UHGV virus genome: UHGV-1845973
Direction: 5' to 3' (one strand)
Source: a virus
DNA length: 21,770 bases
The position numbers and the translations under genes were made by a program. The notes under the pieces are model-generated. The model saw only the letters and a program-made list of their open reading frames with translations. It was not told the DNA's origin and searched no databases. Position 1 is the first letter of the stretch. Each line of letters begins with the position of its first letter. Below, piece by piece: positions 5,733 through 21,770 of the stretch.

Positions 5733-5845
5733 TGGTGGCGAACGTGTCGGTATCACCAACGTCACTTGACGTAGATGAAGGTGAAACTATCGCCGCGAAC
5801 ACTTCAAAGGCACAGAAAAAAACAAAGCAGAAGTAAGGCAAAAAC

Positions 5846-5866
5846 ACGCCCCTGATTAAGGGGCGT
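5846..5866 (+). terminator. GC-rich hairpin downstream of the capsid gene (8-bp perfect stem, 5-nt loop)
   Basis: ACGCCCCT-gatta-AGGGGCGT. No U-tract follows; the SD of the next gene does. It may be a partial terminator or an mRNA-stabilising element. Confidence 0.35.
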
Positions 5867-5879
5867 TCAGGAGAAAAGA

Positions 5880-6158
5880 ATGGCAAACATTCAAGTAACT
5901 ATCACGCCATCTGACGCAACAGACAAATCTTTCACTGTTGAGTCAGATCACCCTGAAATTGTCCGGGTTGATGGCACTACATGTACCGCTCTTAAGGCCG
6001 GGCAGGCAGTGCTGACAATCAAAACAAATGACGGCAATAAAACCGCACAGTGCACAGTCACTGTTAGGGAGGCACATAAAAGCGTAAGCACCGTCAGTGT
6101 TGAACCAACTACGAAAGAAGTAACCGTAGGCGATAACTTCACGGTAAGCCAATCCTGA
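5880..6158 (+). CDS. Bacterial Ig-like (Big_2-type) domain protein, probable head or tail decoration
   Basis: IQVTITPSDATDKSFTVESDHPEIVRVDGTTCTALKAGQAVLTIKTNDGNKTAQCTVTV has the Big_2 pattern (...V...G.v.al..G.a.it..t.dG....c.vtV). The C-terminus VSVEPTTKEVTVGDNFTV looks like the first strands of a second, truncated domain. Confidence 0.7.
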   Translation: MANIQVTITPSDATDKSFTVESDHPEIVRVDGTTCTALKAGQAVLTIKTNDGNKTAQCTVTVREAHKSVSTVSVEPTTKEVTVGDNFTVSQS

Positions 6159-6163
6159 TCAGA

Positions 6164-6188
6164 GGCTGCCCATTAACCGTGGGTAGCC
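6164..6188 (+). terminator. Hairpin after the Ig-like gene (9-bp stem with one G-U pair, 7-nt loop)
   Basis: GGCTGCCCA-ttaaccg-TGGGTAGCC, followed by the T-rich stretch ttgcctcgttctc. Confidence 0.3.
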
Positions 6189-6225
6189 TTGCCTCGTTCT
6201 CTCGCTTTAGAGGATAAGAACCAGC

Positions 6226-7884
6226 ATGAATAAGATTAGTTTTTCGGTAGGGCAGGCAGCTGGCGTTGCTGTAATGTCAGTAAATGCTGACGCTACCCTC
6301 ACCAATACCAGCGGTGGCGCATCCGTCTTTGCTGGGCTTGTAATATCGCGTCGTGGCGCACCGGGTAAGGTACTGAAAGTTGACGATACGACTTATCAAA
6401 GCGTATTAGGTTCACCGATTCACCCTCGCCAGGGCGCGGCATTTGAACCATATCGCCACGTGGAGCGTGCAGTAAAAGGCGGCTCTGGATATGTCGTTCG
6501 AGTTTGCGCTAAAGACATGAAGGTGCCGGGTATTTCTGTTTCCGTTGTGGGCAAAGCAAAAGCGGCAAAGGCGAGCAAAGAACTTTCCGTTGAACCTACT
6601 GAAACCACAGTAAATCCAGGTGACACATTAAGCGTTGGTGTTGCTTCAACTGCAACGACTCAATCAGTGACCTTCACACCCAAAGAGACGCCCCAGATTA
6701 AAGGTGAAGAGAAGGCATTATTCTTCATCAAAGATGGTGATGCATCTCAAAATCGCACGTTATCACTAACTCGCGATGATGAAGAAAGCGAACTCTTTAC
6801 GCTGACGCTGAAAGAAAAACAAACCGATGGGTCCATTGAGGTGCTGGAAAGCCACCAAGTGTCTTTCAATCCAGAAGGCACCAACGACATGGGCCAACCA
6901 GCATGGATTCCGACACTGCTTGAAAGCCAGTCCACTCGCATTGGTGCCGTACTGGCAGATAATGCAGAAGCATCCGCTGCTCAACTCATTTTTGAGGATG
7001 TAGCTTTTGAAGGTGGTACTGATGGAAATCTGTCCGAAATTAACGCTGCAGACTATCTGGAAGCATTAAAGGTTCTCGAAGCTTCAGAGGTTAATTACAC
7101 CGCATTGCTGTCACTGGGTTGTTATGACGCATCCGCCTTAGCCGCAATCAAAAAGCTGGCTGAAGATGTTCGCGTAGACATGTTCTATGACCTGAAGGGC
7201 AACCAGACACCTGAAAACGCTATTTCAGAAGCGAAAAGCCATAGTTTTGGCGGCTCACATCAACCAAGCCGTTACTACTTCCCGCTCTCCTGCCGAGATA
7301 CCTTCACTGGGATGAATGTCGTCTATGGCATTAGTTGCGACGCATTCGTAGCAAAAGCAAAAGGGGTAGCGCTGGTACCGGATGTTGGTGGTTGGCATTA
7401 CGCACCGGCAGGTATATCACGCGCGATTATTGATCGACAGAACATTGCCCGAATTCCAAATATCGGTGCAGTTGATCGTGAAGCGTTCGTTCTTGCGCGC
7501 ATTAATCCGGTTTCAGTTGCTGCTGATGGGTCCGTTTACATTGACGACTCTTTAACAACTTACAGCAAAAACAACTATCTGCGATTCCAGCATGTGTCTT
7601 CCTTGATGAACGCCATCGCCAGAGATTTCTATGAAGTAGCTCAGGCGATTAAGCACGAACCGGATGGCATTACCAAAGAAACGCTAATGAAAGCAATGAC
7701 TGAATTGCTTGACCGTTACGTTGCAGCCGGTGCGCTGGTTACTCCACGTGACAAGTCCCAGGGTGAAGATCCATACGTTGTTCAGGTTGTCCAAAAGGAC
7801 ATCGATCTGTGGGAAGTGTCCTGGTCTGTTTGTCCGACCGGTACAGCTCGCCGAATCGTCGGTAAGCCAATTCTGATGCGCTGA
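6226..7884 (+). CDS. Contractile tail sheath protein
   Basis: The C-terminal half shows the usual sheath pattern: GGWHYAPAGISRAII...REAFVLARINPVSVAADGSVYIDDSLTT...YLRFQHVSSLMNAIARD...LDRYVAAGALV. This corresponds to the PAG, INP, wG and R.l..i motifs of the P2 FI / T4 gp18 C-domain family. The N-terminal part carries an Ig-like insertion (LSVEPTETTVNPGDTLSVGV). Confidence 0.7.
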   Translation: MNKISFSVGQAAGVAVMSVNADATLTNTSGGASVFAGLVISRRGAPGKVLKVDDTTYQSVLGSPIHPRQGAAFEPYRHVERAVKGGSGYVVRVCAKDMKVPGISVSVVGKAKAAKASKELSVEPTETTVNPGDTLSVGVASTATTQSVTFTPKETPQIKGEEKALFFIKDGDASQNRTLSLTRDDEESELFTLTLKEKQTDGSIEVLESHQVSFNPEGTNDMGQPAWIPTLLESQSTRIGAVLADNAEASAAQLIFEDVAFEGGTDGNLSEINAADYLEALKVLEASEVNYTALLSLGCYDASALAAIKKLAEDVRVDMFYDLKGNQTPENAISEAKSHSFGGSHQPSRYYFPLSCRDTFTGMNVVYGISCDAFVAKAKGVALVPDVGGWHYAPAGISRAIIDRQNIARIPNIGAVDREAFVLARINPVSVAADGSVYIDDSLTTYSKNNYLRFQHVSSLMNAIARDFYEVAQAIKHEPDGITKETLMKAMTELLDRYVAAGALVTPRDKSQGEDPYVVQVVQKDIDLWEVSWSVCPTGTARRIVGKPILMR

Positions 7885-7927: not shown

Positions 7928-8662
7928 ATGAAAAATTATACTGCTGATCCTTTTATGCGTGCGATTTTCGGTTCTGGCTGCTTTGAAAGCGGTGATAAAT
8001 CCACGCAGGACAATAATGATAACGCCATGCTGGAAAGCGCAGGACAGAAAGGAAAGGACACTCAACCAAAGCCCAAAGACGACATTGAAACCGCGATGAT
8101 GGAAGCGGTTGAATCCCGTGCACAAGGTGATATGCGCAGCCTGGCAGCTTCCATGCTTGCTGGTTGGGTTGAAGATGGTGATCCGGAGGCTGACTCATTT
8201 GATGCATTAGCAATCACTATGGCTGGCCTGGCTGATATCGATGAAGACACCGATTTCACCGATGAGCAAATCGATGCTTATAACGATGCACTCGCAGCTC
8301 TTGCTGATGCAGCTGTTGCGCTTGGCGCTGATCAGGATGATGTAACCGAAATGATCGACGATGAAGATGACTCAGCTGCCGAACGTGTTTATGACGCTCT
8401 TTCCGAAAGCGACACCGACATGATGGAAACAGCTATTGCCATTTACACCGTTGCTGGTGGTGATAGCGCAATGCTGGAAGCGGTACGTAAAAAAGTGGTT
8501 CGTGATGGCAAGGTAACCATCATCCGTAAACGCCCGCGTCCTCGCCGCATGACGTCATTGCAAAAACAGGCGCTGAAAAAAGCACGCCGCAAAGCACATA
8601 CATCCGTAGCGAATATCAACCGCAAAAAATCAATGCGCATTCGCAAAAAACGCGGTTTGTAA
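7928..8662 (+). CDS. Hypothetical bipolar protein: Asp/Glu-rich body and strongly basic C-terminal tail
   Basis: I prefer the ATG at 7928, which has GAGAGAGG 8 nt upstream, over the TTG at 7922. The middle of the protein is very acidic (IDEDTDFTDEQID, MIDDEDDSAAE). The last 55 aa or so are Lys/Arg-rich (RKRPRPRR...KKARRKAH...RKKSMRIRKKRGL). Confidence 0.55.
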   Translation: MKNYTADPFMRAIFGSGCFESGDKSTQDNNDNAMLESAGQKGKDTQPKPKDDIETAMMEAVESRAQGDMRSLAASMLAGWVEDGDPEADSFDALAITMAGLADIDEDTDFTDEQIDAYNDALAALADAAVALGADQDDVTEMIDDEDDSAAERVYDALSESDTDMMETAIAIYTVAGGDSAMLEAVRKKVVRDGKVTIIRKRPRPRRMTSLQKQALKKARRKAHTSVANINRKKSMRIRKKRGL

Positions 8663-8711
8663 GTGACATAGGCCGTCTGCAAAGGTGGCCTCTACCTGGG
8701 AGAAATAGCGT

Positions 8712-9302
8712 TTGATTTGCGGCGCGATAATGCCTGACGGAATAAGTCCGTTAATGAAGGTTTATATCCTCTCTTCAGAGGATATGGTCGTCGGTTATAT
8801 CGGTGAAGGATCTACCGCAGAACTGTCATCAATGTGGCAATCACCATTTGAAAACCAGTCAGTAGGAGGTTTGCTTGGTGGTATTAGCGCTGCGGCTGGC
8901 TCTCTTGCAGATACGCTTCAGACCGCAACCGGCGTAACAACAAAAACCCTCTTCAACTCAATGCTTGTTTGGGAAGGTCAGCAACCGCCTGAATTTAATC
9001 TGGTAATTGATTTCATGGCGACAACGAACGCGCAACTTGAAGTAAACGCAGCCATTACAGCATTGCTGAAGATGGAATCGCCGGAACTGAACAATGTAGC
9101 GCCATTCGGTCGTCGCCCGGAGACAGTAACGTTAAACATAGGTAGGAACATAGCCCTTACCGACGTTGTTATCAAAAGCGTGAGTTACCAACTGGACGCC
9201 CCACGCACACCGGAAGGCTATTTCACTCATAACACGGTAACCCTGCAATGCAGCGGAAACACCTCGATTAACCGTAGCAACATATCATCTGTTTTTGTGT
9301 AG
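8712..9302 (+). CDS. Hypothetical virion or tail protein
   Basis: It lies between the sheath and tube genes. The start is ambiguous among TTG 8712 (GGGAGA 9 nt upstream), ATG 8730 and ATG 8754. I recognise no confident family. Confidence 0.45.
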   Translation: MICGAIMPDGISPLMKVYILSSEDMVVGYIGEGSTAELSSMWQSPFENQSVGGLLGGISAAAGSLADTLQTATGVTTKTLFNSMLVWEGQQPPEFNLVIDFMATTNAQLEVNAAITALLKMESPELNNVAPFGRRPETVTLNIGRNIALTDVVIKSVSYQLDAPRTPEGYFTHNTVTLQCSGNTSINRSNISSVFV

Positions 9303-9310
9303 GAGTATTT

Positions 9311-9802
9311 ATGTCCGGTTTTGCAAATACAAAAGCCGATATCGCTTTTCTGAAATCCCGGTTGAACAAAAACCTGGCAGCGGGCGAAAAACTTATTGGT
9401 TCAGAATTCTGGATGACTATTAAAGGTTACGAAAAACTATCTGTACTTGTTCGTACCACTCAGTTGCCGGAAATGACTCGCGAAGACGTGGAAGACTATG
9501 GTCCTGGCGGCATGAAGATCAACCAGCACGGGCCATTGCGTAACTCAGGTGAATTCCAGGTTACCTGCTCTGAAACCATCGAAGGGGATGTTCTGGCCGC
9601 CGTAAAACAAATGGTATATGGCAAAGAATATCTGGAAATTACCTTACAGGCAGCGGCTGAATCCAATAGCGGTAACCATAAAGGTCTGATCCGCACATAT
9701 TATCACTGCAAAGTGTATTCCGACGCAGTGGACTTCTCCACCGAAGACGTAACAGCAGTCGTTAAGCCTTCCCTGCGTATTGTTTACAACTGGGTAGAGT
9801 GA
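9311..9802 (+). CDS. Tail tube protein (P2 FII / Hcp-like)
   Basis: The 163-aa size fits. The segment VLVRTTQLPEMTREDVEDYGPGGMKINQHGPLRNSGEFQVTCSE parallels P2 FII SVTLPKLTRKLENYRGAGMNGSAPVDLGL...MEWSLGG as I recall it. A hairpin follows the gene. Confidence 0.6.
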   Translation: MSGFANTKADIAFLKSRLNKNLAAGEKLIGSEFWMTIKGYEKLSVLVRTTQLPEMTREDVEDYGPGGMKINQHGPLRNSGEFQVTCSETIEGDVLAAVKQMVYGKEYLEITLQAAAESNSGNHKGLIRTYYHCKVYSDAVDFSTEDVTAVVKPSLRIVYNWVE

Positions 9803-9807
9803 TCTCT

Positions 9808-9828
9808 TTCCCGCCCTTGTGGCGGGAA
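9808..9828 (+). terminator. Hairpin after the tube gene (8-bp stem TTCCCGCC/GGCGGGAA, 5-nt loop)
   Basis: It lies 6 nt after the stop and is followed by ctccttgtattt, a partial T-run. It is the most terminator-like of the intercistronic hairpins. Confidence 0.4.
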
Positions 9829-9854
9829 CTCCTTGTATTTGAGTTGTAGGTACG

Positions 9855-10406
9855 ATGACACCAACCGAATTATTAGAAAGCGTTAAAGTACGATTTAATC
9901 CACTGCTTGTGCGTGAAGAAGAAACGCTGAAAGCCTTCCTGATCAAAGCTCTGACCACGTATCAGGACAGGGCAGGGGTAGTGAAAACGTTAAAACTTGA
10001 AAAAGCTGGTGGTACTGCAATCCCATTACCAGAAGATTATCTCTCTCTGGTTCATGTTACCGACAACAATGGCCTGTTGGTCTATTCGGATGAATTATCC
10101 GGATTTATTGAATTAGAGCTAACAGGTTCAGAACGCTGGCCTTTTCGAATGCTGTATCTGGTTAATCTACGCGACAGAAAGCTGGATGAATGGCAAGTGC
10201 CTCCTGCAATCATTGGAATGCTGGAGGAATATCTGGAGGCGCTTATCAATGTAAGAAATGTCGCCCGGCAGCGTAGAGCGTCCATCGACGGGAAATTTGA
10301 CTACTCCGATCTGCCCGATGAAGCCACGCTATATGCCCGCGTGCAGGAGATTGAGGAAAAAATGTCCTCAAACCGGGCCATTATTCCGGGGGCTACCATT
10401 TTTTAA
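9855..10406 (+). CDS. Hypothetical virion morphogenesis protein (183 aa)
   Basis: It is an ORF in the co-oriented structural block. I recognise no family. Confidence 0.45.
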   Translation: MTPTELLESVKVRFNPLLVREEETLKAFLIKALTTYQDRAGVVKTLKLEKAGGTAIPLPEDYLSLVHVTDNNGLLVYSDELSGFIELELTGSERWPFRMLYLVNLRDRKLDEWQVPPAIIGMLEEYLEALINVRNVARQRRASIDGKFDYSDLPDEATLYARVQEIEEKMSSNRAIIPGATIF

Positions 10407-10421
10407 CGCTGGAGGCGCAGA

Positions 10422-11129
10422 GTGAGTATTTTCAGCAGCGTTGGTAGAACGTTGACCACCGCATTGTCATTTAACACGAAATCATTCACCAGCAACCTCA
10501 TTAGCGACATTCTTGATAAAGCCATATCAGGCGGCGGGGTAAGCGGGAATTACAGTAGCGATATTGCCTACGGGAAAAATATTGTTGCTGCCGCTATGCG
10601 TATCCGTTACGCCCAGGGGTGGCAGTGGACCGTTGAAGTGGATGGCCTGAACGGCTTCGATATGTTCGTGAAGGATATCACCTACAGCAGTGGAAACATT
10701 GAGACAGAAAGCAAGGTGATCGGCAGCGTAGAATTCAGCAAGCCAACCTATGTTAGCGCTGGACCGGTCACTATGACCGTGAGGGATACCGAAGATGGCA
10801 AGATCATGGACTGGTTCAAAGAGCGTCGTTCTCGTGTAACAAATCCTGATGGAACAATAAACCTTCCTCCGGAATATCTGATGAAAATCCGTGTCTACCG
10901 GGTAACTCAGGACGGCGGAAAAGAACTGGAAGAAGAAATGCGCGTATTTCCTACACAACTTGGGGAAATCACTCGCTCACGTGATCAGGTGTCAGAGTTC
11001 TTGTCATACCCAATCACTTTCCAGAAATACACATCTGCAGGCTCAGGTGTTTCTGCCTTGGTCAACGGTGCCGCTGGCATGGCTACAAGTGCGTTAAAGG
11101 GGGCTATCAGTGGAGTGATCAAATTCTGA
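10422..11129 (+). CDS. Hypothetical tail or baseplate protein (235 aa)
   Basis: The GTG start has GGAGG 7 nt upstream. The pattern W.W.VEVDG...FVKDITYSSG...TMTVRDTEDGKIMDWF...PPEYLMKIRVYRV loosely recalls T4-type baseplate or tube-initiator proteins. I consider this similarity weak. Confidence 0.4.
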   Translation: MSIFSSVGRTLTTALSFNTKSFTSNLISDILDKAISGGGVSGNYSSDIAYGKNIVAAAMRIRYAQGWQWTVEVDGLNGFDMFVKDITYSSGNIETESKVIGSVEFSKPTYVSAGPVTMTVRDTEDGKIMDWFKERRSRVTNPDGTINLPPEYLMKIRVYRVTQDGGKELEEEMRVFPTQLGEITRSRDQVSEFLSYPITFQKYTSAGSGVSALVNGAAGMATSALKGAISGVIKF

Positions 11130-11140
11130 AATGCTTTAAT

Positions 11141-11364
11141 TATGTGTGCTGTAGGGAAAGGTTTACGTTAAATGTGTGCTGCCGGGAAACCCCATTGCTC
11201 AAGATGTGTTGTAGAGGGAATGGTAATGGCAACATGTGTGCTGGAGGGGAATTTCGCATGTAAAGAGCGTCATTTATCCCTCCAGCACACATCTGAAATA
11301 AGCAATCCTCTGAAATTCCCTCCACCACACATCCAGACATGAAACTATCCCTTCAGCACACATT
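11141..11364. repeat. incA-like iteron array: seven 19-bp RepA-binding repeats downstream of repA
   Basis: Four copies have the GATGTGTGCTGGAGGGAAA orientation, at 11141, 11171, 11203 (diverged) and 11233. Three copies have the opposite orientation, at 11275, 11315 and 11346. The last overlaps the repA stop codon. The core CAGCACACAT/ATGTGTGCTG is conserved. Confidence 0.85.
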
Positions 11365-12227
11365 TAATCTGTTGGTTTAAGTTTCGGATTCCGAGAGTGA
11401 ACGATAATGAAGTTTTCACGACCTTGCTTTTCAATGGTGCAATCGAGATAACCTATTGTTTTTAACTGGTCTATAGCTTTTTTTATCGTTCTGTTTTGCT
11501 CACTTACCGATGACATCAAGGCTAATCTTTCACGTATTCTGGCAAATGAAATAGGTATTGGACGTGCCGGGAGGCTTTCTATAAAGGTATATATGGCCTG
11601 GGCTGCTTCTTTTTTAGGTAAAGCGCGAAGTGCGTGTTGCTGTAGAAGCACCCGATAGTCTAGCTGGAAGATTTCCCATAACTTGGAATCAGCCTCCAGT
11701 TCAACGACATCTGTTTCAAAGTCAAAATATCCCGTTTTAAGCAGGCCAGTATTGTAGCTTCCACGAGCACTTTTCCCTCTTTTGAATGAGATGCCTTTGT
11801 TGCGTAACCGACCTAAAGAATCGTGGATCGTGTTTCTTAATTTCCCATCAAGTCGCTTAGATGGAAATCCGCACGCCTTTGCAAATTCTTGAAAAGAAAG
11901 GCGAATTGTATTCGATGATAAGCCATACTTGCTAAATGAGTAGATTACCCCAATCCAGACTTTGAAATCAGTATCCATGTCCAAGCGAGGGCCAGTGATC
12001 TTGATGTTGTCGTAGCCTTCTGCTTGAGCTATTTCCAATTTGGAAAAAACAGATGATGCATCTATCTCGTTGTTTTCACCCTGTTTTTTAGTTGGTTTAG
12101 GGACGAAAACACCAAGCCGCATAAGTGCGACAGGTTGAACAGTATTGTTCGAATTAACTGTTAATTCTTTAGCCTTGCTTTCAATGTCAGCATAAAGAAT
12201 ATCAGAGATAAATGACTTATCCATCAA
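11364..12227 (-). CDS. repA: P1-type plasmid replication initiator RepA
   Basis: The 287-aa product is near-colinear with P1 RepA as I recall it: FISDILYADIESKAKELTVNSNNTVQPVALMRLGVFVPKP...ITGPRLDMDTDFK...LSFQEFAKACGFPSKRLD...ALPKKEAAQAIYTFIESLP...IVHSRNPKLK. It is flanked on both sides by P1-type 19-bp iterons. Confidence 0.95.
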   Translation of the reverse strand: MMDKSFISDILYADIESKAKELTVNSNNTVQPVALMRLGVFVPKPTKKQGENNEIDASSVFSKLEIAQAEGYDNIKITGPRLDMDTDFKVWIGVIYSFSKYGLSSNTIRLSFQEFAKACGFPSKRLDGKLRNTIHDSLGRLRNKGISFKRGKSARGSYNTGLLKTGYFDFETDVVELEADSKLWEIFQLDYRVLLQQHALRALPKKEAAQAIYTFIESLPARPIPISFARIRERLALMSSVSEQNRTIKKAIDQLKTIGYLDCTIEKQGRENFIIVHSRNPKLKPTD

Positions 12228-12280
12228 TAAGTTACCGTCATGTTGTGAATAAAGTTTACGACAGTGGATATCCGGCTTTT

Positions 12281-12384
12281 TTTCCCGTCAGCACACATCC
12301 TACATCCCGTCAGCACACATGTAAAACCCTCCAGCACACATATTTTTCCCGTCAGCACACATCGTTCTCCCTCCAGCACACATC
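12281..12384. repeat. incC-like origin iterons: five direct 19-bp repeats
   Basis: TTTCCC(GT/TC)CAGCACACATC-type repeats start at 12281, 12303, 12324, 12345 and 12366. The spacings are 22, 21, 21 and 21 bp, about two helical turns, and all copies share one orientation. They lie immediately upstream of repA, as in P1 oriR. Confidence 0.9.
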
Positions 12385-12429
12385 TGAATAGTGGTTAAAG
12401 CCTTATGTGGCGCGGCCTGAAGAGCTACG

Positions 12430-12578: not shown

Positions 12579-13400
12579 TTGAACATTCCAAAATTCCCAT
12601 TGCCTTCCCGTCCTGAGACAGAAATTCAGTTCCACGCCCCTACCGTGAAGGATGCGCTGAAATATTCTGACCTGAACCCGGCAGAAGATGAGGCAACTAC
12701 TACAGAGTACCTTAACTCTATGCAGGATGGTGAAATTAACGACAGTGCTTACTGGACAGTCCAGGATCGCAGAACTGCCCTTTGGTGGATATTTGTTAAT
12801 TCGCGCCCCGATGCAGTAATGACCTACTCCTATGAGTGCAGTCACTGCGGTAATACGCATCATGCAGATATTAACCTGAGCGACCTGGCCCAAACAGTAG
12901 AAATACTCACTGTACCTCCTTACGTGAAAACCAACGTACCAGTAAATGGAGTACCAACTGACTGGATACTTAAACCATTAACCGGGAAAGGTGCGGAACT
13001 CCTTGAACGAATGCGAGCGTCACTTCCTGATATGAAAAGTCCCGAATACAGTGCTGGCGTAGCACGGATGCGAATTGCTGAACTCGCTTTATGCACGGCG
13101 CTTGAAGACGATCCGGAGGACTTCACGCAGGCCGCTAACCGACGCTTTGACATCATTGAAAGCATGGCGCTTGAAACCGAATTTACTCCGCTTGTGGCTC
13201 GCATACAGCTTATGCAAAAAGACCTACGTCACGGCCTGAAAATGTCTATTGAGAGAGGCTCAAGCCGACTGATCCTGCCTCCGCAACATTGCAAAAACGC
13301 TAAGGAGGGTGCAGATGTGACAACCACACTGTACGTCCCCTTTCTCAATAGAGAGTTTATCCCATCAATTAGATCTGAATGGATGGCTAACCATTATTAA
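12579..13400 (+). CDS. Hypothetical tail assembly protein (273 aa) preceding the tape-measure gene
   Basis: The TTG start has GGAGGA 4 nt upstream. The gene sits directly upstream of the giant tail protein. It contains a CSHCG...HH element. The function is inferred from position only. Confidence 0.4.
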   Translation: MNIPKFPLPSRPETEIQFHAPTVKDALKYSDLNPAEDEATTTEYLNSMQDGEINDSAYWTVQDRRTALWWIFVNSRPDAVMTYSYECSHCGNTHHADINLSDLAQTVEILTVPPYVKTNVPVNGVPTDWILKPLTGKGAELLERMRASLPDMKSPEYSAGVARMRIAELALCTALEDDPEDFTQAANRRFDIIESMALETEFTPLVARIQLMQKDLRHGLKMSIERGSSRLILPPQHCKNAKEGADVTTTLYVPFLNREFIPSIRSEWMANHY

Positions 13401-13414
13401 CAACCTGACTCTGT

Positions 13415-16400
13415 ATGGATATCAGCCCATTAGTGACGTTGAACAATTACCGCAATGGCGAGCACTCCATATGTCAAAAGCCCTGGAAGAAAAATACAAA
13501 GCTCAAGCCGGGAAACGTTGATCGCGCTGGTAAAAGAGAGGTTATTTTGAAAGAGAATAAAGACCGTATCGCAATAATTGACGCTATTCAGGAAGCGAGC
13601 ACAAACGAACTTAAAGCTCTTGCTGAGGTAAAAGACGCCATTCTTTCTGGGGCAAGCACCATAACTCAACAGGACGAAAGGCAAGGCAGAGTTAGCAACA
13701 GACTATCACGCAGGCGTAAAGAGTACGAGCAAAGTACATCTGATAGCGTTAGAGATGTCCAAACTAACCCATATAAAAAACGTCTCCCTGCTAAAAAGGA
13801 GAGGGCACCGATAAACCAAACCGTGGACCGCTCTATCGTTGCAACGAACACACCAGAAAGTGTTCGCTCCGTGCAATCACGTCAGACCATCCGAAAATCG
13901 GACGGTTTTATACCGGTAGCTGCTAATTCAGCCCCTCTTGAACCACAATCCCCCCAAAGTCTAAAAGGCCCGCTGCGGGATAGTAATGGACGTTTTGTAT
14001 CCCAAAAAAGCAATGAGGATGTAGCCAGAAAAAAAGAATTGCAGAACGCACGTAAAGCCGACGCAAAATTACAAGCTGGCTTTCTCAGAAAGCTAGGTTC
14101 CATTATGGGGGTAGATGGCAATCGGTCTTCCAGTGAAGAGTCTTTAACAAATGCAGCTGGTGTCGGTGCTGGTGGGCCGTTCTGGATGGCGGCTCGTGGC
14201 ATGTACGACATAACTAAAGAGATCACAGGTAAAGCAGAATCTCTTAAAGAATGGGTAGAAAAGGGGAAAAAAGAAACATCAACCTCGAAAGCAATATCAC
14301 CAGTAATTACTTATCCGGCGGCGGTGAATTCTCAAAAAGCAACATCTGCAAAAGCGTTCAATAACGCTGTTGAGACAAAATCCGCACAAGCAGTAGAAGA
14401 GCAAACCAAAATCCTTCAGACCAATGACAACAAAATAATTGATGGTCTGGAAAATGTTTCTGACGAGATAGTTAAGCTTCGGAAATCAGTGTCTTCTGGA
14501 AATAAGTTCGGCTTAAGTGATCTCTGGAAAAATCGAGCAAGCAGAAGAAATAAAATCAATATTGGTGATCAGACGGGAAAAAATAAACGGAACAAATCGA
14601 AAAGGAAAGGACGCAATCTTGGGAAAAAAGCACTCTCCGCTGGCGAAAAAGTTGCTGCCGGTAGCGCTGCGGCTGGCACTGGTGTCGGAGCAGCAAAAGT
14701 AGTTAAAAATAAGATCAGCAAACCCAAAGATGTAAGCACTATCAGCGATACATCAAAGGGGATTGCAAAGGAAACAAAAAATACTGCTAAGGCCGTGAAG
14801 TCAGCTGGTGTTGTGGCTGAAGATGCCACCATTAAAACCGGCGAAGCCATTGCAAAGAAAAAAACTGAATCTGTAGCCCTCAAAAGTGCTGCAAAAATAG
14901 GTGTTAAATCAGCAGCATCCACAGCGGCAAGAGCGGTCCCTATCATCGGTTCGCTGGCAATGGCTGGATATGACGCCATAGATGGTTACACAGATACAGA
15001 GGCGCAAAAGGCAGCCTTTGGATTAAGTGACGATAATGCTGTATCCGAACAGCAAAAAACGGCTTACGCAACAGCTAATGTGCTCGATATGGGGGGCTTG
15101 GTGTCGGGCGCAACGAACTTGATAGGGAAAGGAATTTCTGCGCTAGGATTTGAAAGAGCAGGTGAAAAACTTCAGAATTTTGATACCGGAGATATTGCTC
15201 GTGGTGTTAACGGCGCGGTAGATATCACCAAATCTGTTTTTGGTAGCCTTAAGGATACATTTTTATCCACTGATGAAAACACGAAACAAGTAAAAAAAGC
15301 TGTTGAAGACGGCACCAAAAAAACTGTCGATGCGATTCATTCTCTAGGTGAACAATTACAAGGTGGGCGTAATGGCGAGGATGGAGTTGGTGAGCACGGG
15401 TATACTTCTCCAACTGAATTTAGTGCACCTGCCAACAACACCATTGCAGCGGATCTGAATATTGGCGGCAGCAACGCTAAAAACCGCAATTACCGAAATA
15501 ATAATCTCGGCAATCTTGTTTTTGCCAACCAGGAAGGGGCGACGCTGGAATCGCCAAATGCAAAAGGTGAACAACGTTTTGCGCGATTTAACACACCTGA
15601 AGAAGGGATCAGGGCACTGGCAAACCAGGTTTCCAGCTATTACAACGGCACCAGTGCCGCAGCGGGATATCAGAAGTTACAGACGGTATCCAGCATCATT
15701 TCAAAATGGGCACCGCCAAATGAGAACAATACTAACCAATATATTGATAACGTCAGTAAATATCTTGGTGTATCGCCTAATGAAAAAATAGATGTCAGCA
15801 AACCAGAGGTTATGACGCAATTAGTTCGTGCAATTGCGACGAAAGAAGGCGGAAATCCGGCAGTTAATAATGAGTTCATTAAGAACGCACTTGGAGCATT
15901 TAACACAAACACTGGTCGATGGGAGGGACAATTCTCTGACGAAACATTGGCGCGGATTAATAAAATTCAGAAAGAAAATGGTGGTCAGCTAATTGCCCGC
16001 GATTCGCAATATAGTGTTGGTCGCAAGGTAAAATATGCTAATGGAAAATCTCCAGCTCAACCAGTTTTGAATGCCGTTCCGACAGCAACACAACAGCCAA
16101 TTGAGGTTGCACAACATGCCCAGGCAGTCAAAAAGCCACAAAAAACAGGTAACCAACCACAACCGATTAATCCAGAGAACGCTGATGTTAATACCGGCTC
16201 TCCATCGAGTTTGCTTGAGCGGTTAATCACAATAAATGAAAGCGGAATCAGTGGTGCAAGTAATTTATTTGGCGGCGCGGCTACCAGCCTTGCTGGAACA
16301 AGTCTGGACCTGGTAAAGGATTTTGCGTTGGCTACTTCGTTTGGTTCTATATCTTCGCTTTCCGAAAAAGCGAAAGGAATGGATCAGGCTCTTACTGAAA

Positions 16401-17359
16401 AGATATCCGGCTTAACCGGTAAATCTTTTGGATTTAAAATAGCTTCTCAAGTGGCTGATATCGCAACAGCCATACAACAAAAACGCACTGTTAATCACGA
16501 TACAGAAATCATTGATCTACTTCCGGGAGATCAAGTATCCCCTTCTACTCCGAAAACCCCACAGCAGGAGCAGGCTCTAGCAATCAGCCAGGCTATGGAG
16601 GGCTTTTCATCTGCAGCGCCAGCACCGAAAACCCCACAGCAGGAGCAGGCTCTAGCAATCAACCAGGCTATGGCGGGAGCTGCGCCAGTAGTTACCTCTG
16701 GAAAACGAACTATCACGGCACCAAGTGATGTGCAGATTTATGACAACGGCTACAAGGTGGTTACAGGTGAGGATAAGAGCTTCTTTGGTTCGCTATTTGA
16801 TTCCACGGTGTCAGGGCTTAAACAGACAGGAACCGCAGTAATTCCTGCCGTTGGCGATAACCTTTCACGACTTGTTGGGGGGATTGATAGTACAGGGATA
16901 TTGAACGATCTTGTAATGCAGTCTACTGGGCAGAATAGTGCGATTGCGCGAGCTATTAGCCCATTAACAAGAAATGTTGGAGACTGGCTGAATGGGGGGA
17001 TTCAACAAACCGCTAATAGCATTAGGGGAATAGCAACTGGTGCCAATAACGCCATATTTGGCTCTGCTTCAGCTGTGCAAGAACCTTTTCTTGCTATGCC
17101 GCCACAACTCCCTACTGTAACCGATCTCGCACGAAGCGGAATAAGACAACCATTAACTACTGACACTATAAATAACGATCCTGCTATGTTGAAGGCGCTG
17201 GATAACATCTGCTCTATCCTGAACGATCTGCTGAATGTGAACAAGAACAATACAAAAGGCGATCCGGATAATGTTGTCAAAACATCGCAGCCGCAGCCGC
17301 GACCACGTGCGAGCACAACTATTAATGACCAGTCGCTGGATGCTCTGCTTGAGGATTAA
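13415..17359 (+). CDS. Tail tape-measure / injection protein (P1 Sit-like), 1314 aa
   Basis: It is the largest gene and lies just upstream of the baseplate genes. It has long Ala/Lys/Gly-rich helical and hydrophobic segments typical of tape-measure proteins (AAGSAAAGTGVGAAKVV, VPIIGSLAMAGYDAIDG). A globular domain is embedded at about 15480..15900. The start is ambiguous: ATG 13415 has no SD, while in-frame TTG 13547 has AAGAGAGG 5 nt upstream. Confidence 0.7.
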   Translation: MDISPLVTLNNYRNGEHSICQKPWKKNTKLKPGNVDRAGKREVILKENKDRIAIIDAIQEASTNELKALAEVKDAILSGASTITQQDERQGRVSNRLSRRRKEYEQSTSDSVRDVQTNPYKKRLPAKKERAPINQTVDRSIVATNTPESVRSVQSRQTIRKSDGFIPVAANSAPLEPQSPQSLKGPLRDSNGRFVSQKSNEDVARKKELQNARKADAKLQAGFLRKLGSIMGVDGNRSSSEESLTNAAGVGAGGPFWMAARGMYDITKEITGKAESLKEWVEKGKKETSTSKAISPVITYPAAVNSQKATSAKAFNNAVETKSAQAVEEQTKILQTNDNKIIDGLENVSDEIVKLRKSVSSGNKFGLSDLWKNRASRRNKINIGDQTGKNKRNKSKRKGRNLGKKALSAGEKVAAGSAAAGTGVGAAKVVKNKISKPKDVSTISDTSKGIAKETKNTAKAVKSAGVVAEDATIKTGEAIAKKKTESVALKSAAKIGVKSAASTAARAVPIIGSLAMAGYDAIDGYTDTEAQKAAFGLSDDNAVSEQQKTAYATANVLDMGGLVSGATNLIGKGISALGFERAGEKLQNFDTGDIARGVNGAVDITKSVFGSLKDTFLSTDENTKQVKKAVEDGTKKTVDAIHSLGEQLQGGRNGEDGVGEHGYTSPTEFSAPANNTIAADLNIGGSNAKNRNYRNNNLGNLVFANQEGATLESPNAKGEQRFARFNTPEEGIRALANQVSSYYNGTSAAAGYQKLQTVSSIISKWAPPNENNTNQYIDNVSKYLGVSPNEKIDVSKPEVMTQLVRAIATKEGGNPAVNNEFIKNALGAFNTNTGRWEGQFSDETLARINKIQKENGGQLIARDSQYSVGRKVKYANGKSPAQPVLNAVPTATQQPIEVAQHAQAVKKPQKTGNQPQPINPENADVNTGSPSSLLERLITINESGISGASNLFGGAATSLAGTSLDLVKDFALATSFGSISSLSEKAKGMDQALTEKISGLTGKSFGFKIASQVADIATAIQQKRTVNHDTEIIDLLPGDQVSPSTPKTPQQEQALAISQAMEGFSSAAPAPKTPQQEQALAINQAMAGAAPVVTSGKRTITAPSDVQIYDNGYKVVTGEDKSFFGSLFDSTVSGLKQTGTAVIPAVGDNLSRLVGGIDSTGILNDLVMQSTGQNSAIARAISPLTRNVGDWLNGGIQQTANSIRGIATGANNAIFGSASAVQEPFLAMPPQLPTVTDLARSGIRQPLTTDTINNDPAMLKALDNICSILNDLLNVNKNNTKGDPDNVVKTSQPQPRPRASTTINDQSLDALLED
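16550..16673 (+). repeat. 75-bp-period tandem duplication inside the tape-measure gene
   Basis: The 49-bp cores at 16550..16598 and 16625..16673 differ at a single base. They encode PKTPQQEQALAI(S/N)QAM twice, 25 aa apart. Confidence 0.9.
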
Positions 17360-19176: not shown

Positions 19177-20022
19177 ATGAAAGATAATTGGCTTAAGGAA
19201 CGATTAACTAAAGTAAAACAGGATTCACATCTCTGGAGTGCATTTATAGACGCTTTACAGGATGTCTGGAATGAGGCAGTAGAACCAATATTAACAAGAA
19301 TAAGTAACAGAAAATCCTTCTTCACTATGGACAGTGAGGATATGGATGCCCGCATTGCTGAATACGGGCGTTTTTTCGTTATCACTGAAAAAGATAATGC
19401 CCGTAGGCCAATGCTTCTGGCGCAGCGTTTAGATGAAGTGCACTTTAAAGGTACTATCTTGCCTATTGAGCAGACATTCTGGCGTGAATTCGGTTGTATT
19501 CCTGTTAGTTGGGAACCGCTGTATGCACCTGTAAATATAGAAAAACACCCCTATGGTTCATATTTTGCGACCGAAATAGAAATACCTACGGCACAGGCTC
19601 AATTCGGTGAGCTCTTCCTGACATCAAGGGGGCTGGTCGTTGTTGATCAGAACAAGCTATATCGCTCATATGGAGAGCAGGATAAAGAAGCCGCTGTGCA
19701 GAAATTGTTATCTGACTTCGAAACAGTAATAGCCCCTTTGTTGCCATTGCATATTGTTTTTGATGGCGTCTCGTTTCGGCTTAGTGCTGTATTCCCTGAA
19801 GTGGCAGAAATATTAAATTACCTGTCTACGGATGTTTCGGTAATTGAAGGTGTTTATGTTACTGAGAGTATGGCTGATATGCTATCCCGTAGTGATACCT
19901 CCTGCCAGGCAGACAATATTTCTCTTAATGCCATACCGAACCGAACGGCAGAAAAGCAATTACATCTTGATGTAACCCCACTCGATGCGTGGCCTTTGGA
20001 TTACCACCTTCAACCTGTTTAA
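19177..20022 (+). CDS. Hypothetical baseplate or tail-fibre attachment protein (position of P2 gpI / P1 gp16)
   Basis: GAGG lies 5 nt upstream of the ATG. The gene follows the gpJ-like gene. The assignment rests on synteny only. Confidence 0.4.
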   Translation: MKDNWLKERLTKVKQDSHLWSAFIDALQDVWNEAVEPILTRISNRKSFFTMDSEDMDARIAEYGRFFVITEKDNARRPMLLAQRLDEVHFKGTILPIEQTFWREFGCIPVSWEPLYAPVNIEKHPYGSYFATEIEIPTAQAQFGELFLTSRGLVVVDQNKLYRSYGEQDKEAAVQKLLSDFETVIAPLLPLHIVFDGVSFRLSAVFPEVAEILNYLSTDVSVIEGVYVTESMADMLSRSDTSCQADNISLNAIPNRTAEKQLHLDVTPLDAWPLDYHLQPV

Positions 20023-20025
20023 TAA

Positions 20026-20051
20026 TTCTTCCCCCGCATTTGGGGGAAGAA
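20026..20051 (+). terminator. Perfect 10-bp hairpin (TTCTTCCCCC-gcattt-GGGGGAAGAA)
   Basis: It lies 4 nt after the stop at 20022. No U-tract follows. It sits immediately upstream of the promoter-like motif at 20058. Confidence 0.4.
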
Positions 20052-20057
20052 CAACGG

Positions 20058-20078
20058 AAATCACAAACTGAGCATACT
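20058..20078 (+). promoter_or_regulatory. Candidate -35-less (late-type) promoter: AAATCACAAA-N5-CATACT
   Basis: This is the third copy of the motif architecture. It lies 39 nt upstream of the ATG at 20117, which heads the tail-fibre operon. Confidence 0.45.
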
Positions 20079-20116
20079 CTCCTTTGGTTCATTGCTTATG
20101 AAGGGGCTATGTTCGT

Positions 20117-20563
20117 ATGGCTGAAAATTTAAAGGTAAGAGATGGTAACCGCCTGTATAAGGCGCAATTACTTTCCTACTATTATTCACGCCGCGCAGAG
20201 TCGGCGATCGGCAAAGGTGCGCGTTTTGTTATCTCTAAGGCGTATTGGTGCAAATCTAGTCTGGTAACTGCTAATGGTGCAGGAGGCTGGAATATAGCGG
20301 ACATTCCGCTCGATTTTAAATTGAGTGGCGCTCAACAGTTTGCTGTGTCCGATCTGATATTGTCCAGCGTGGATGGGATTATCACGATCAATGCAGCCTT
20401 CCCTCAAGAAAGAATGCCGGATAACACGCCTTACGACTTTAACACGCTTGTGCTTGTTGATGCTGAGGAACAGGCTTTTGGTGTGCTTTGCACCCAGCAA
20501 GATACCCTCTATAAAGGTAAACGTTACAGTATTCTCATGACAATCGAGCAAGTTGAGGGTTGA
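20117..20563 (+). CDS. Hypothetical tail-fibre-associated protein (position of P1 gpR)
   Basis: The 148-aa ORF lies directly upstream of the tail fibre gene. The segment FNTLVLVDAEEQAFGVLCTQQDTLYKG loosely recalls the N-terminal domain of P2 gpH (ELGLYDDAGTLIAVAN). I consider this similarity weak. Confidence 0.4.
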   Translation: MAENLKVRDGNRLYKAQLLSYYYSRRAESAIGKGARFVISKAYWCKSSLVTANGAGGWNIADIPLDFKLSGAQQFAVSDLILSSVDGIITINAAFPQERMPDNTPYDFNTLVLVDAEEQAFGVLCTQQDTLYKGKRYSILMTIEQVEG

Positions 20564-20565
20564 TT

Positions 20566-21770
20566 ATGGGGGCTGATAAAACGAACAACATAATGACACT
20601 ATCCTCTGGTGTCTCACAGTCGTTGCTTGCTGATGTTCAATATTTCGAACTCTATAGTAGTCTGGCTCTTAACAGAAAACTAAAAAATATTGTTTTGCCT
20701 GGCTTTTACTGTGGATTTGAACCGGTTCCCGGCACAGGGTTGAGTGTCCGCATAACTTCTGAAAACTCCGAAGGTAAAGGGGCTGCTTCAGTAGATGTAA
20801 ATAATGTTCAGATATCCGTTCAGCAAATAGAAGATGTGACTGTCTCGGTAAAGGCAGGGGCTACCAACATTATTGTGCTGGAAGCCAATTTTGAACATGG
20901 TGTAAAAACGACACAGGTAGATAGCGCATCTTCTGTCAGTGCTGCAAGAATTTACGCGCGTACGGACAATACTATTGGGCAGAATCAAATTGAATTATGT
21001 CGAGTTATCGTGCCTAGCGGCGCAACGGCTGTGACTAAAGAAATGATTGTGCTTAAATACCGGGTTAACCGTGCTGTTGGTGTCGAATTCTCTAATGAAA
21101 TAAGCAGTACAGAAGAAAGAAAAGCGGCTACACCGAAAGCTGTCAAGGCTGCATATGACCTGGCTAACGGGAAGTATACAGCCCAGGATGCAACCACGAC
21201 ACAAAAAGGGATAGTTCAGCTCAGTAGCGACACCAACAGCACTTCTGAAACATTAGCTGCAACTCCAAAAGCGGTTAAAGCTGCATACGATCTAGCAGCC
21301 GGAAAGGCACCATCCAGTCATACACATCCCTGGAATCAGATCACTGGTGTGCCAACAGCTTCATTGACAGCGAAAGGCATCACTCAGCTCAGTAGTGCCA
21401 CTAACAGCACGTCTGAAGTGCTGGCCGCTACACCGAAAGCTGTCAAGGCTGCATATGACCTGGCTAACGGGAAGTACACAGCCCAGGATGCAACCACGAC
21501 ACAAAAAGGGATAGTTCAGCTCAGTAGCGACACCAACAGCACTTCTGAAACATTAGCTGCAACTCCAAAAGCGGTTAAAGCTGCATACGATCTAGCAGCC
21601 GGAAAGGCACCATCCAGTCATACACATCCCTGGAATCAGATCACTGGTGTGCCAACAGCTTCATTGACAGCGAAAGGCATCACTCAGCTCAGTAGTGCCA
21701 CTAACAGCACGTCTGAAGTGCTGGCCGCTACACCGAAAGCTGTCAAGGCTGCATATGACCTGGCTAACGG
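20566..21770 (+). CDS. Tail fibre protein, 5' partial (P2 H / P1 S / Mu S family); the ORF runs off the window
   Basis: It is absent from the ORF track because no stop is reached. I translated from the ATG at 20566 (MGADKTNNIMTLSS...) to the window end and found no stop. It contains repeated SLTAKGITQLSSATNSTSEVLAATPKAVKAAYDLANGKYTAQDATTTQKGIVQLSS motifs, which are nearly identical to the P2 gpH repeats as I recall them. Confidence 0.85.
   Translation, partial: MGADKTNNIMTLSSGVSQSLLADVQYFELYSSLALNRKLKNIVLPGFYCGFEPVPGTGLSVRITSENSEGKGAASVDVNNVQISVQQIEDVTVSVKAGATNIIVLEANFEHGVKTTQVDSASSVSAARIYARTDNTIGQNQIELCRVIVPSGATAVTKEMIVLKYRVNRAVGVEFSNEISSTEERKAATPKAVKAAYDLANGKYTAQDATTTQKGIVQLSSDTNSTSETLAATPKAVKAAYDLAAGKAPSSHTHPWNQITGVPTASLTAKGITQLSSATNSTSEVLAATPKAVKAAYDLANGKYTAQDATTTQKGIVQLSSDTNSTSETLAATPKAVKAAYDLAAGKAPSSHTHPWNQITGVPTASLTAKGITQLSSATNSTSEVLAATPKAVKAAYDLAN
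21127..21770 (+). repeat. 300-bp tandem repeat within the tail fibre gene (2 full copies plus the start of a third)
   Basis: Positions 21127..21426 and 21427..21726 are identical except for one synonymous T/C at 21177/21477. Positions 21727..21770 repeat the unit again exactly. Confidence 0.95.

Follow-up and report, generated by a model that had tools for sequence, protein, structure and literature searches.

Paired PF03406 modules form an in-frame, copy-number-polymorphic tandem array in the shaft-encoding part of a D6-like tail-fibre gene

The stretch of DNA analyzed here in full, hereafter the window, is the 21,770-nucleotide (nt) virus genome UHGV-1845973. It is a D6-like, P1-related plasmid prophage of Escherichia coli, and it matches the E. 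coli B2C plasmid pB2C_96 (NZ_CP035876.1) with one mismatch in 10,204 overlapping nt. The window ends inside a 300-base-pair (bp) tandem array, which lies in the 5′ part of a tail-fibre gene homologous to gene S of phages P1 and D6. The array is an in-frame, modular and polymorphic block of the PF03406 (Phage_fiber_2) repeat in the shaft-encoding part of S. Our interpretation, which we hold with considerable confidence, is that a higher-order unit of two shaft modules, A and B, was amplified in the constant part of the gene (Sc), between the N-terminal domain and a cix-like hinge. The features concerned are these, in window coordinates and all on the plus strand:

20117..20563, +, homologue of gene R of P1/D6 (tail-fibre/baseplate-associated), a 148-amino-acid (aa) open reading frame (ORF) directly upstream of the fibre gene
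20566..21770, +, first 401 codons (5′ part) of the tail-fibre gene, homologous to P1/D6 gene S; the frame runs off the window (translation)
20566..21120, +, residues 1-185, the N-terminal domain (95% identity to D6 S)
21121..21168, +, initial repeat core KAATPKAVKAAYDLAN, in part degenerate and likened here to the partial 'a0' of P1
21127..21770, +, 300-bp tandem array, made up of unit 1 (21127-21426), unit 2 (21427-21726) and the opening 44 nt of unit 3 (21727-21770)
21169..21300, +, A module 1, T allele at 21177 (module decomposition)
21301..21468, +, B module 1 (module decomposition)
21319..21327, +, HxH motif (HTH) of B module 1, with a second copy at 21619-21627 (sequence)
21469..21600, +, A module 2, C allele at 21477 (module decomposition)
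21601..21768, +, B module 2, with no difference from B module 1 (module decomposition)
21763..21770, +, window end ...GCTAACGG, a probable contig break (comparison with pB2C_96)

Tandem Repeats Finder reported for 21127-21770 a period of 300, 2.1 copies, 99% matches and a score of 1281, and a second repeat search set 21124-21423 against 21424-21723 at 99% identity. On inspection, units 1 and 2 carry a single mismatch inside 21127-21726 (21177 T vs 21477 C), which falls on the third base of a Tyr codon (TAT/TAC) and is synonymous in the frame from the ATG at 20566. A further synonymous difference, GCG/GCC (Ala) at 21126/21426, sits one base ahead of the array start at 21127. All 44 bases of unit 3 match the starts of units 1 and 2. 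An identity of 299/300 between units is beyond chance, and a sequence-only reading of the window, which had described a near-perfect repeat with one synonymous difference and an identical start of a third unit, was confirmed on each of these points. The fibre reading frame is open across the whole array to the last base of the window. Other ORFs of at least 50 aa were not found inside the window array, nor were Rfam families in 20000-21770. A hidden gene or RNA within the array was considered and rejected on the lack of an Rfam match and on a six-frame scan of the full array, which gave short ORFs only (44-70 aa on the reverse strand, 47 aa per internal unit, and one forward ORF of 73 aa at the 3′ end of the array).

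The identity of the gene follows from several lines of comparison. All 401 aa of the window ORF are identical to the start of a 928-aa 'phage tail protein' in pB2C_96, and residues 1-203 are 95% identical to D6 S. The N-terminal domain aligns to that of P1-like S at 40% aa identity (E=5.5e-44), with no match at the DNA level. The upstream gene order, sit, pmgA, bplA, 16, R and then the fibre gene S, is that of D6 and P1, and the R homologue at 20117..20563 has its counterparts in D6_36 ('similar to P1 gene R') and in the coding sequence at pB2C_96 locus 8551-8997. Downstream of the fibre gene pB2C_96 carries, beyond the extent of the window, the tail-fibre assembly gene U, inverted fibre-gene fragments (S'/U') and a cin-type recombinase. 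The Pfam hidden Markov model of PF03406 scored 667.7 bits against the pB2C_96 fibre protein (cut-off 22), in 11 matched stretches. The same protein has a Collar domain at aa 768-815, aligning to the T4 gp37 tip, and residues 109-150 of the Mu tail-fibre protein S, whose structure is solved, align with one of the repeat cores. Because of the homology to D6 S, the synteny with P1/D6 and the PF03406 matches, we identify the gene, by sequence, as an S-type tail fibre with the array within Sc; the earlier assignment to a tail-fibre gene is thus upheld by homology and synteny. The N-terminal domain presumably attaches the fibre to the baseplate, by analogy with Mu gp49, whose N-terminus docks on the baseplate wedge (PMC11915804). 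The sole mismatch between the window and pB2C_96 is at window 13429 (A vs G), which makes the window a very close relative of that plasmid.

Module boundaries were set from the invariant TPKAVK anchor, the spacing of which alternates between 132 and 168 nt. The unit is composed of a 44-aa module A (132 bp) and a 56-aa module B (168 bp), each with one PF03406 core and a linker of its own. Module A has the linker GKYTAQDATTTQK followed by the core GIVQLSSDTNSTSETLAATPKAVKAAYDLAA, and module B the linker GKAPSSHTHPWNQITGVPTASLTAK followed by the core GITQLSSATNSTSEVLAATPKAVKAAYDLAN. The 33-aa cores of A and B differ at 27 of 99 nt (72.7% DNA identity), with 18 synonymous and 4 non-synonymous codon differences; to judge from this pattern of substitution, the pair is an old duplication under purifying selection. 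The sequence-only reading had proposed two older, diverged repeats of the P2 H type within each unit, and this description holds: both are PF03406 cores, and the repeat is found also in P2-like, lambda, Mu and P1 fibres. At the position of the first, degenerate core of the window, D6 reads AATPLAVKTLHDL.

The linker of B contains an HxH motif, in which both histidines are invariant in all B alleles, while the preceding and the middle residues vary (SSHTH, SNHTH, SNHIH). The tip of T4 gp37 has iron-binding HxH motifs. By analogy, the HxH of each B module may coordinate a single metal ion on the axis of the trimer. An AlphaFold2 monomer model of a two-unit segment was uninformative (mean predicted local distance difference test score, pLDDT, 43; predicted template-modeling score, pTM, 0.25).

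Repeated elements at this place in the gene have a precedent in P1, the record of which (NC_005856, from GenBank M81956) annotates in Sc the elements a0 (36 bp, ahead of a1), a1 (132 bp), and b1 and b2 (222 bp). A 69-aa alignment that starts in module A matches P1 S at 64% identity (E=7e-21) and begins at P1 S aa 208, inside a1; on this alignment module A is the counterpart of a1. The 222-bp 'b' elements of P1 (DTKAP...LTGxPTAPT...) are absent from the window array and present in D6, pMTY1586 and AR_0118. The two arrangements are alike in the gene, in lying between the N-terminal domain and the cix hinge, in the 132-bp 'a' element and in amplification in tandem and in frame. They are unlike in that in P1 a single full 'a' precedes two 222-bp 'b' elements, whereas here A alternates with a 168-bp B that is absent from P1, the N-terminus is of the D6 type, and the AB pair is amplified to five or more near-identical copies.

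The point at which the window stops is informative. Internal units of pB2C_96 read ...GCTAACGG and then GAAGTAC..., which leads into the next unit; its last unit reads ...GCTAACGG and then AAAACAACC..., which leaves the array (A AAACAACC...). The final G of the window is the last base that these two paths have in common, and the chance of a random cut at the branch base is about 1/300. Since it ends at a repeat branch point, the window is probably a short-read contig broken inside the repeat, and the 2.1 copies are a lower bound. A graph assembler would traverse unit 1, marked by its T allele, loop once and halt at the ambiguous branch. The concern of the sequence-only reading about collapse and expansion during assembly was therefore well placed, as were its expectations that the array continues past the window edge and that the number of units cannot be read from the window: in the near-identical complete plasmid pB2C_96, Tandem Repeats Finder gives 5.1 copies (locus 9561-11104), against 2.1 here, and module decomposition gives five units.

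The same observations raise the question of whether the tandem copies were made or miscounted by an assembler, the real gene having a single unit. An output of 2.1 copies is what a de Bruijn graph would return for any true number of two or more, with an end at the branch point, and some public records of the region contain frameshifts or an odd duplication of the R-S pair. Against an artefact, the window has at least two units because units 1 and 2 differ by a single-nucleotide polymorphism, and related arrays resolved elsewhere bear further on the matter.

We took 20 further arrays from public records and decomposed them into A and B modules. The D6-like set comprises 12 plasmids in which the 4.5-kb upstream flank is 93-99.8% identical to the window. 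The architectures, by record, are as follows:

WCHEC96200 p1 and pKY1497_2 (D6-like): ABAB
p13ZX28-90 and pZX35-94k (D6-like): (AB)4
pB2C_96 and pCUVET20-PYO4.3 (D6-like): (AB)5
p702_18_3 (D6-like): (AB)7
p95_MLI121 (D6-like): BABABABAB
pF719-4 (D6-like): ABBBB
pGF4-B (D6-like): ABBBABBBBBABBB
pMTY1586 (D6-like): BABABA, other modules ahead
AR_0118 (D6-like): BABABAB, other modules ahead
p1506-2 (P1-like): AB
pCREC463-2 (P1-like): (AB)4 A
phage 673R5 (P1-like): (AB)5
SCAID plasmid (P1-like): (AB)5 in both of its S copies
pYJ4-b and pMB17512_2 (P1-like): ABBABBABABAB
phage 813R1 (P1-like): 14 modules with B-B runs

Ten of the 20 arrays are regular, with 1, 2, 4, 4.5, 5 or 7 units, and the rest start with B or hold B-B runs. 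At least eight architectures occur among the 12 D6-like plasmids, and those with flanks 98.5-99.8% identical already include (AB)2, (AB)4, (AB)5, (AB)7, BABABABAB, ABBBB and ABBBABBBBBABBB. Further records in PLSDB, searched by BLAST with the two flanks, gave inter-flank distances of 644, 1244, 1544, 1412, 848 and 1316 nt, all six of which are accounted for by whole 132- and 168-nt modules together with the 44-nt partial unit; the two-flank search was usable for ~15 records with the same hinge, and ~88 D6-like plasmids matched the left flank only. Phage D6 itself was searched, and the A/B array was not found there. The unit, at 80% of its length or more, is present in 191 records and in 188 of 5,426 complete E. 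coli genomes (~3.5%); the number of matching places per record is an imprecise proxy for copy number when set against the fetched loci and was not used for counts.

The variation in copy number foreseen from the window alone is therefore present, and wide, between close relatives, and the opposite pattern that we looked for in them, an invariant copy number with ordinary divergence between units, was not what we found, as the numbers vary. The expected growth of the fibre in steps of 100 aa holds in part: whole AB units do vary, but steps of 44 aa and 56 aa occur too, as the B-B runs attest. In pMTY1586 and AR_0118 the S genes also have an insert of ~235 aa before the A/B array, holding a P1 'b'-type module and an extra domain, and shaft cassettes can therefore be stacked. 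A separate oddity is seen in NZ_CP102949.1 (21786-34432), where the R-S pair occurs twice in tandem with (AB)5 in each and the second S frameshifted; the fibre locus is either truly duplicated there or misassembled.

For the assembly question, these records are telling. The 20 arrays come mostly from complete circular plasmids, their frame is open, and their allele patterns are distinct and internally consistent. Moreover, pYJ4-b (Myanmar) and pMB17512_2 (USA), independent isolates, have arrays of 12 modules with every allele in common, and their invertible segments face opposite ways. We find it hardly credible that the tandem repeat is a product of assembly.

The alleles also speak to how the arrays arose. 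With 673R5, 813R1 and pZX35-94k excluded from the comparison, the pairwise difference between modules had a median of 0% (mean 1.5%) within arrays and a median of 2.3% (mean 2.7%) between arrays. Module alleles are 0-5 nt apart, hybrid modules excepted, and their differences are mostly synonymous. Individual arrays are dominated by alleles of their own, with (A2 B1)x4 in pB2C_96, (A2 B2)x4 in p13ZX28-90, (A2 B3)x4 in p95_MLI121 and (A1 B6)x5 in p702_18_3. At the level of sequence, this is the pattern expected of local expansion by unequal crossing-over or slippage. The view that the identity of the units reflects very recent amplification or concerted evolution is borne out by the lower divergence within arrays than between them. 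Hybrid modules were of two kinds: some B modules have a core that ends as in A, and some A modules have a core of the B type. These hybrids and the B-B runs imply rarer crossovers between the A and B cores, which are 73% identical.

Arrays of this kind might also be contingency loci, in which phase-variable, high-frequency switching of copy number within a lysogen or lysate would give mixed fibre lengths as a form of bet-hedging. Perfect direct repeats of 300 bp lend themselves to recombination, plasmids with flanks >99% identical differ in copy number, and in an Enterococcus phage one isolate with tail-fibre duplications was a mixture of copy numbers in long reads (PMC6365445). The identical complex arrays of the Myanmar and USA isolates argue otherwise, as does the finding of the same 2-unit and 4-unit arrays more than once. 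Near the array there is no dedicated switching mechanism, the invertase acting on the downstream cix-like sites. Because an identical complex array is found in two independent isolates, the data suggest that arrays are stable over epidemiological time and not hyper-unstable, and we consider a phase-variable locus quite improbable.

Together with amplification of the A+B shaft module, the interpretation that we prefer takes in exchange between fibres. Identical module alleles stand behind N-termini of the D6 type and of the P1 type, which share 40% aa identity and have no match in DNA. Among 5,868 protein matches at E<=1e-30, the A/B array is found behind at least four different N-termini; this listing covered proteins of up to 700 aa, and long arrays are not countable in it. 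Several public proteins built of these repeats (P0027, P0073, P0077, P0080, P0103) are named 'short-chain fatty acid transporter', evidently an annotation error propagated between records. On the chromosome of E. coli MB98, a lambdoid Stf gene (locus 4381-6942, after lom) has the modules B-A-B at 95-97% nt identity to the plasmid arrays, and in its C-terminal part it matches the S gene of the D6-like plasmid AR_0118 at 96% identity. These identities indicate a recent exchange in which a chromosomal lambdoid prophage and plasmid prophages took part. D6 and P1 have another cassette at the array position (from the first core to the GKQP...LPYFTG hinge), made of two 74-aa 'b' modules.

Past the array, pB2C_96 has a cix-like 20-mer, TCAATTACCTTGGTTTAGGA, at locus 11260-11279, 155 nt beyond the array end and with 3 mismatches from D6 cixR. 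A 229-nt segment occurs there in three copies in inverted orientation (locus 11260-11494, 12648-12876 and 13087-13315), followed by the recombinase gene. The inverted repeats mark a predicted multi-segment inversion system (Min/shufflon-like) with several alternative fibre tips. By its position ahead of the inversion site, then, the array would form the end of the constant region, and the length that it sets would therefore apply to every alternative tip.

We propose the following mechanism. The S fibre would be a trimer, as is the tail fibre of Mu (PMC11915804). Copy number would change by unequal homologous recombination or replication slippage between near-identical units, and the rarer crossovers between A and B cores would generate the B-B runs and hybrid modules. 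The DNA identity of the arrays would also serve as an in-frame crossover zone for swapping fibre halves between phages. The trimeric shaft would grow by a constant amount with each unit, about 5-6 nm per 100 aa if extended like the T4 long tail fibre, the extension per residue of that fibre being the basis of the estimate.

How far copy number matters for infection is a separate point. Copy number might drift neutrally by recombination, any number of modules being tolerated and none affecting infection. The wide spread of module numbers and orders in apparently intact genes fits this, D6 and P1 function with quite different cassettes at the array position, and in our small sample a link of array length to source or host was not visible. 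Set against neutrality is the strong conservation of the module proteins, whose differences are mostly synonymous; the modules themselves are therefore under selection, although this bears on the modules and not on their number. A coevolution experiment did select tail-fibre duplications (PMC6365445), and this too does not bear directly on copy number here. Neutral polymorphism of length is a possibility that we take seriously without favoring it.

A more ambitious view is that the array is a selected 'length dial and universal adaptor' which, with a repeat in the tape-measure gene, forms a shared strategy of adjustable tail dimensions; we regard this as unlikely. As a dial, the array would set the reach of all the alternative tips through O-antigen or capsule by quickly gaining and losing modules of 44, 56 and 100 aa. 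As an adaptor, it would offer an always-in-frame crossover zone at which baseplate-binding and receptor-binding halves pass between P1-like, D6-like and lambdoid phages. The second repeat in question, also in tandem and in frame, lies at window 16550-16677 in sit, a tape-measure/transglycosylase gene (13415-17359), where a 75-nt (25-aa) unit, PKTPQQEQALAI(S/N)QAM..., is present in two copies. In 12 related D6-like plasmids it has 1, 2, 3, 4, 5, 6 or 8 copies, with gene lengths from 3870 to 4437 nt, and phage D6 gave no match to it. Tail length could be variable too if the repeat part of Sit acts as a tape measure. Fibre-array length and sit repeat number followed no clear trend by eye across these 12 non-independent plasmids.

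Several considerations temper the case for amplification of the A+B module. Any effect of array length on fibre length, adsorption or host range is one that we infer, and the length per unit and the role of HxH in metal binding are argued by analogy. For the source itself, the contig would set only a lower bound on copy number. Frameshifts in the records of 673R5, 813R1 and pZX35-94k render single-base alleles unreliable there, and several of the plasmids surveyed stem from the same studies and are not independent.

The array is best viewed next to other fibres with internal repeats. Like the PF03406 fibres P2 H, lambda Stf and Mu S, it is built of cores each of which matches the family far above threshold, and tblastn matches to the unit came from 368 phage records, among them Peduovirus, lambda, Stx phages and P1/P7. 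Most such fibres have one to few diverged copies, whereas here a two-module unit is amplified at ~100% DNA identity; among the phage records listed, vB_EcoM-813R1 excepted, there were at most 4 matching places, and identity of at least 99% was seen in only two phage records.

Variable in-frame tandem copies in a fibre gene, upstream of the receptor-binding part, also have parallels. In Enterococcus phage EfV12-phi1, varying numbers of in-frame 1.8-kb tandem duplications of a fibre gene evolved under coevolution, with mixed duplication copy numbers within one isolate by long reads (PMC6365445), and duplications in T4 gene 37 are attributed to Tetart et al. 1996 as cited there. Those cases arose by laboratory selection and involve 1.8-kb units or small adhesin segments, whereas ours occur in natural plasmid prophages. 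The array and the part downstream of it are common to D6-like, P1-like and lambdoid fibres at 95-98% nt identity while the N-termini are unrelated, which resembles the mosaic exchange known from other fibre genes; here the principle was known already, and the repeat array is added as a shared crossover zone. Such exchange of tail-fibre gene segments between unrelated phages was reportedly recognized by Haggard-Ljungquist et al. in 1992 and by Sandmeier in 1994. Sequence amplifications are likewise said, in work of Sandmeier, Iida and Arber from 1992, to have led to mosaics of related repeated elements in the fibre genes of P1 and p15B. The P1 elements a0, a1, b1 and b2 are, we take it, those described together with plasmid p15B by these authors in J Bacteriol in 1992. 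In the searchable literature we found no published account of the A+B array, and the accessible papers on P1-like and D6-like plasmids are silent on it. The kind of phenomenon is known; what is specific here is a higher-order unit, A+B, that has been amplified almost perfectly and that varies widely in copy number among present-day plasmid prophages.

Elsewhere in the window, five copies of a 21-nt repeat, TTTATCCCGTCAGCACACATC (74% matches), lie at 12279-12385 beside a replication gene of the RepB family (ORF 11364-12227, minus strand). They are probably the iterons of plasmid replication.

The conceptual gain is small, the modules of P1-family fibre genes having been known since the early 1990s to be repeated, amplified and exchanged. 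The practical consequences are more immediate. P1/D6-like phage-plasmids often carry resistance genes in E. coli and Salmonella. Their short-read assemblies break or collapse in the fibre gene, as this window did, and tail-fibre lengths and annotations taken from such assemblies are therefore unreliable. At this locus there is also a natural series of fibres, from about 1 to 7 units long and on near-identical backbones, in which the length of the shaft is the only difference. Such a series could be used to test fibre length against adsorption through O-antigen or capsule, and in the engineering of P1-based delivery vectors.

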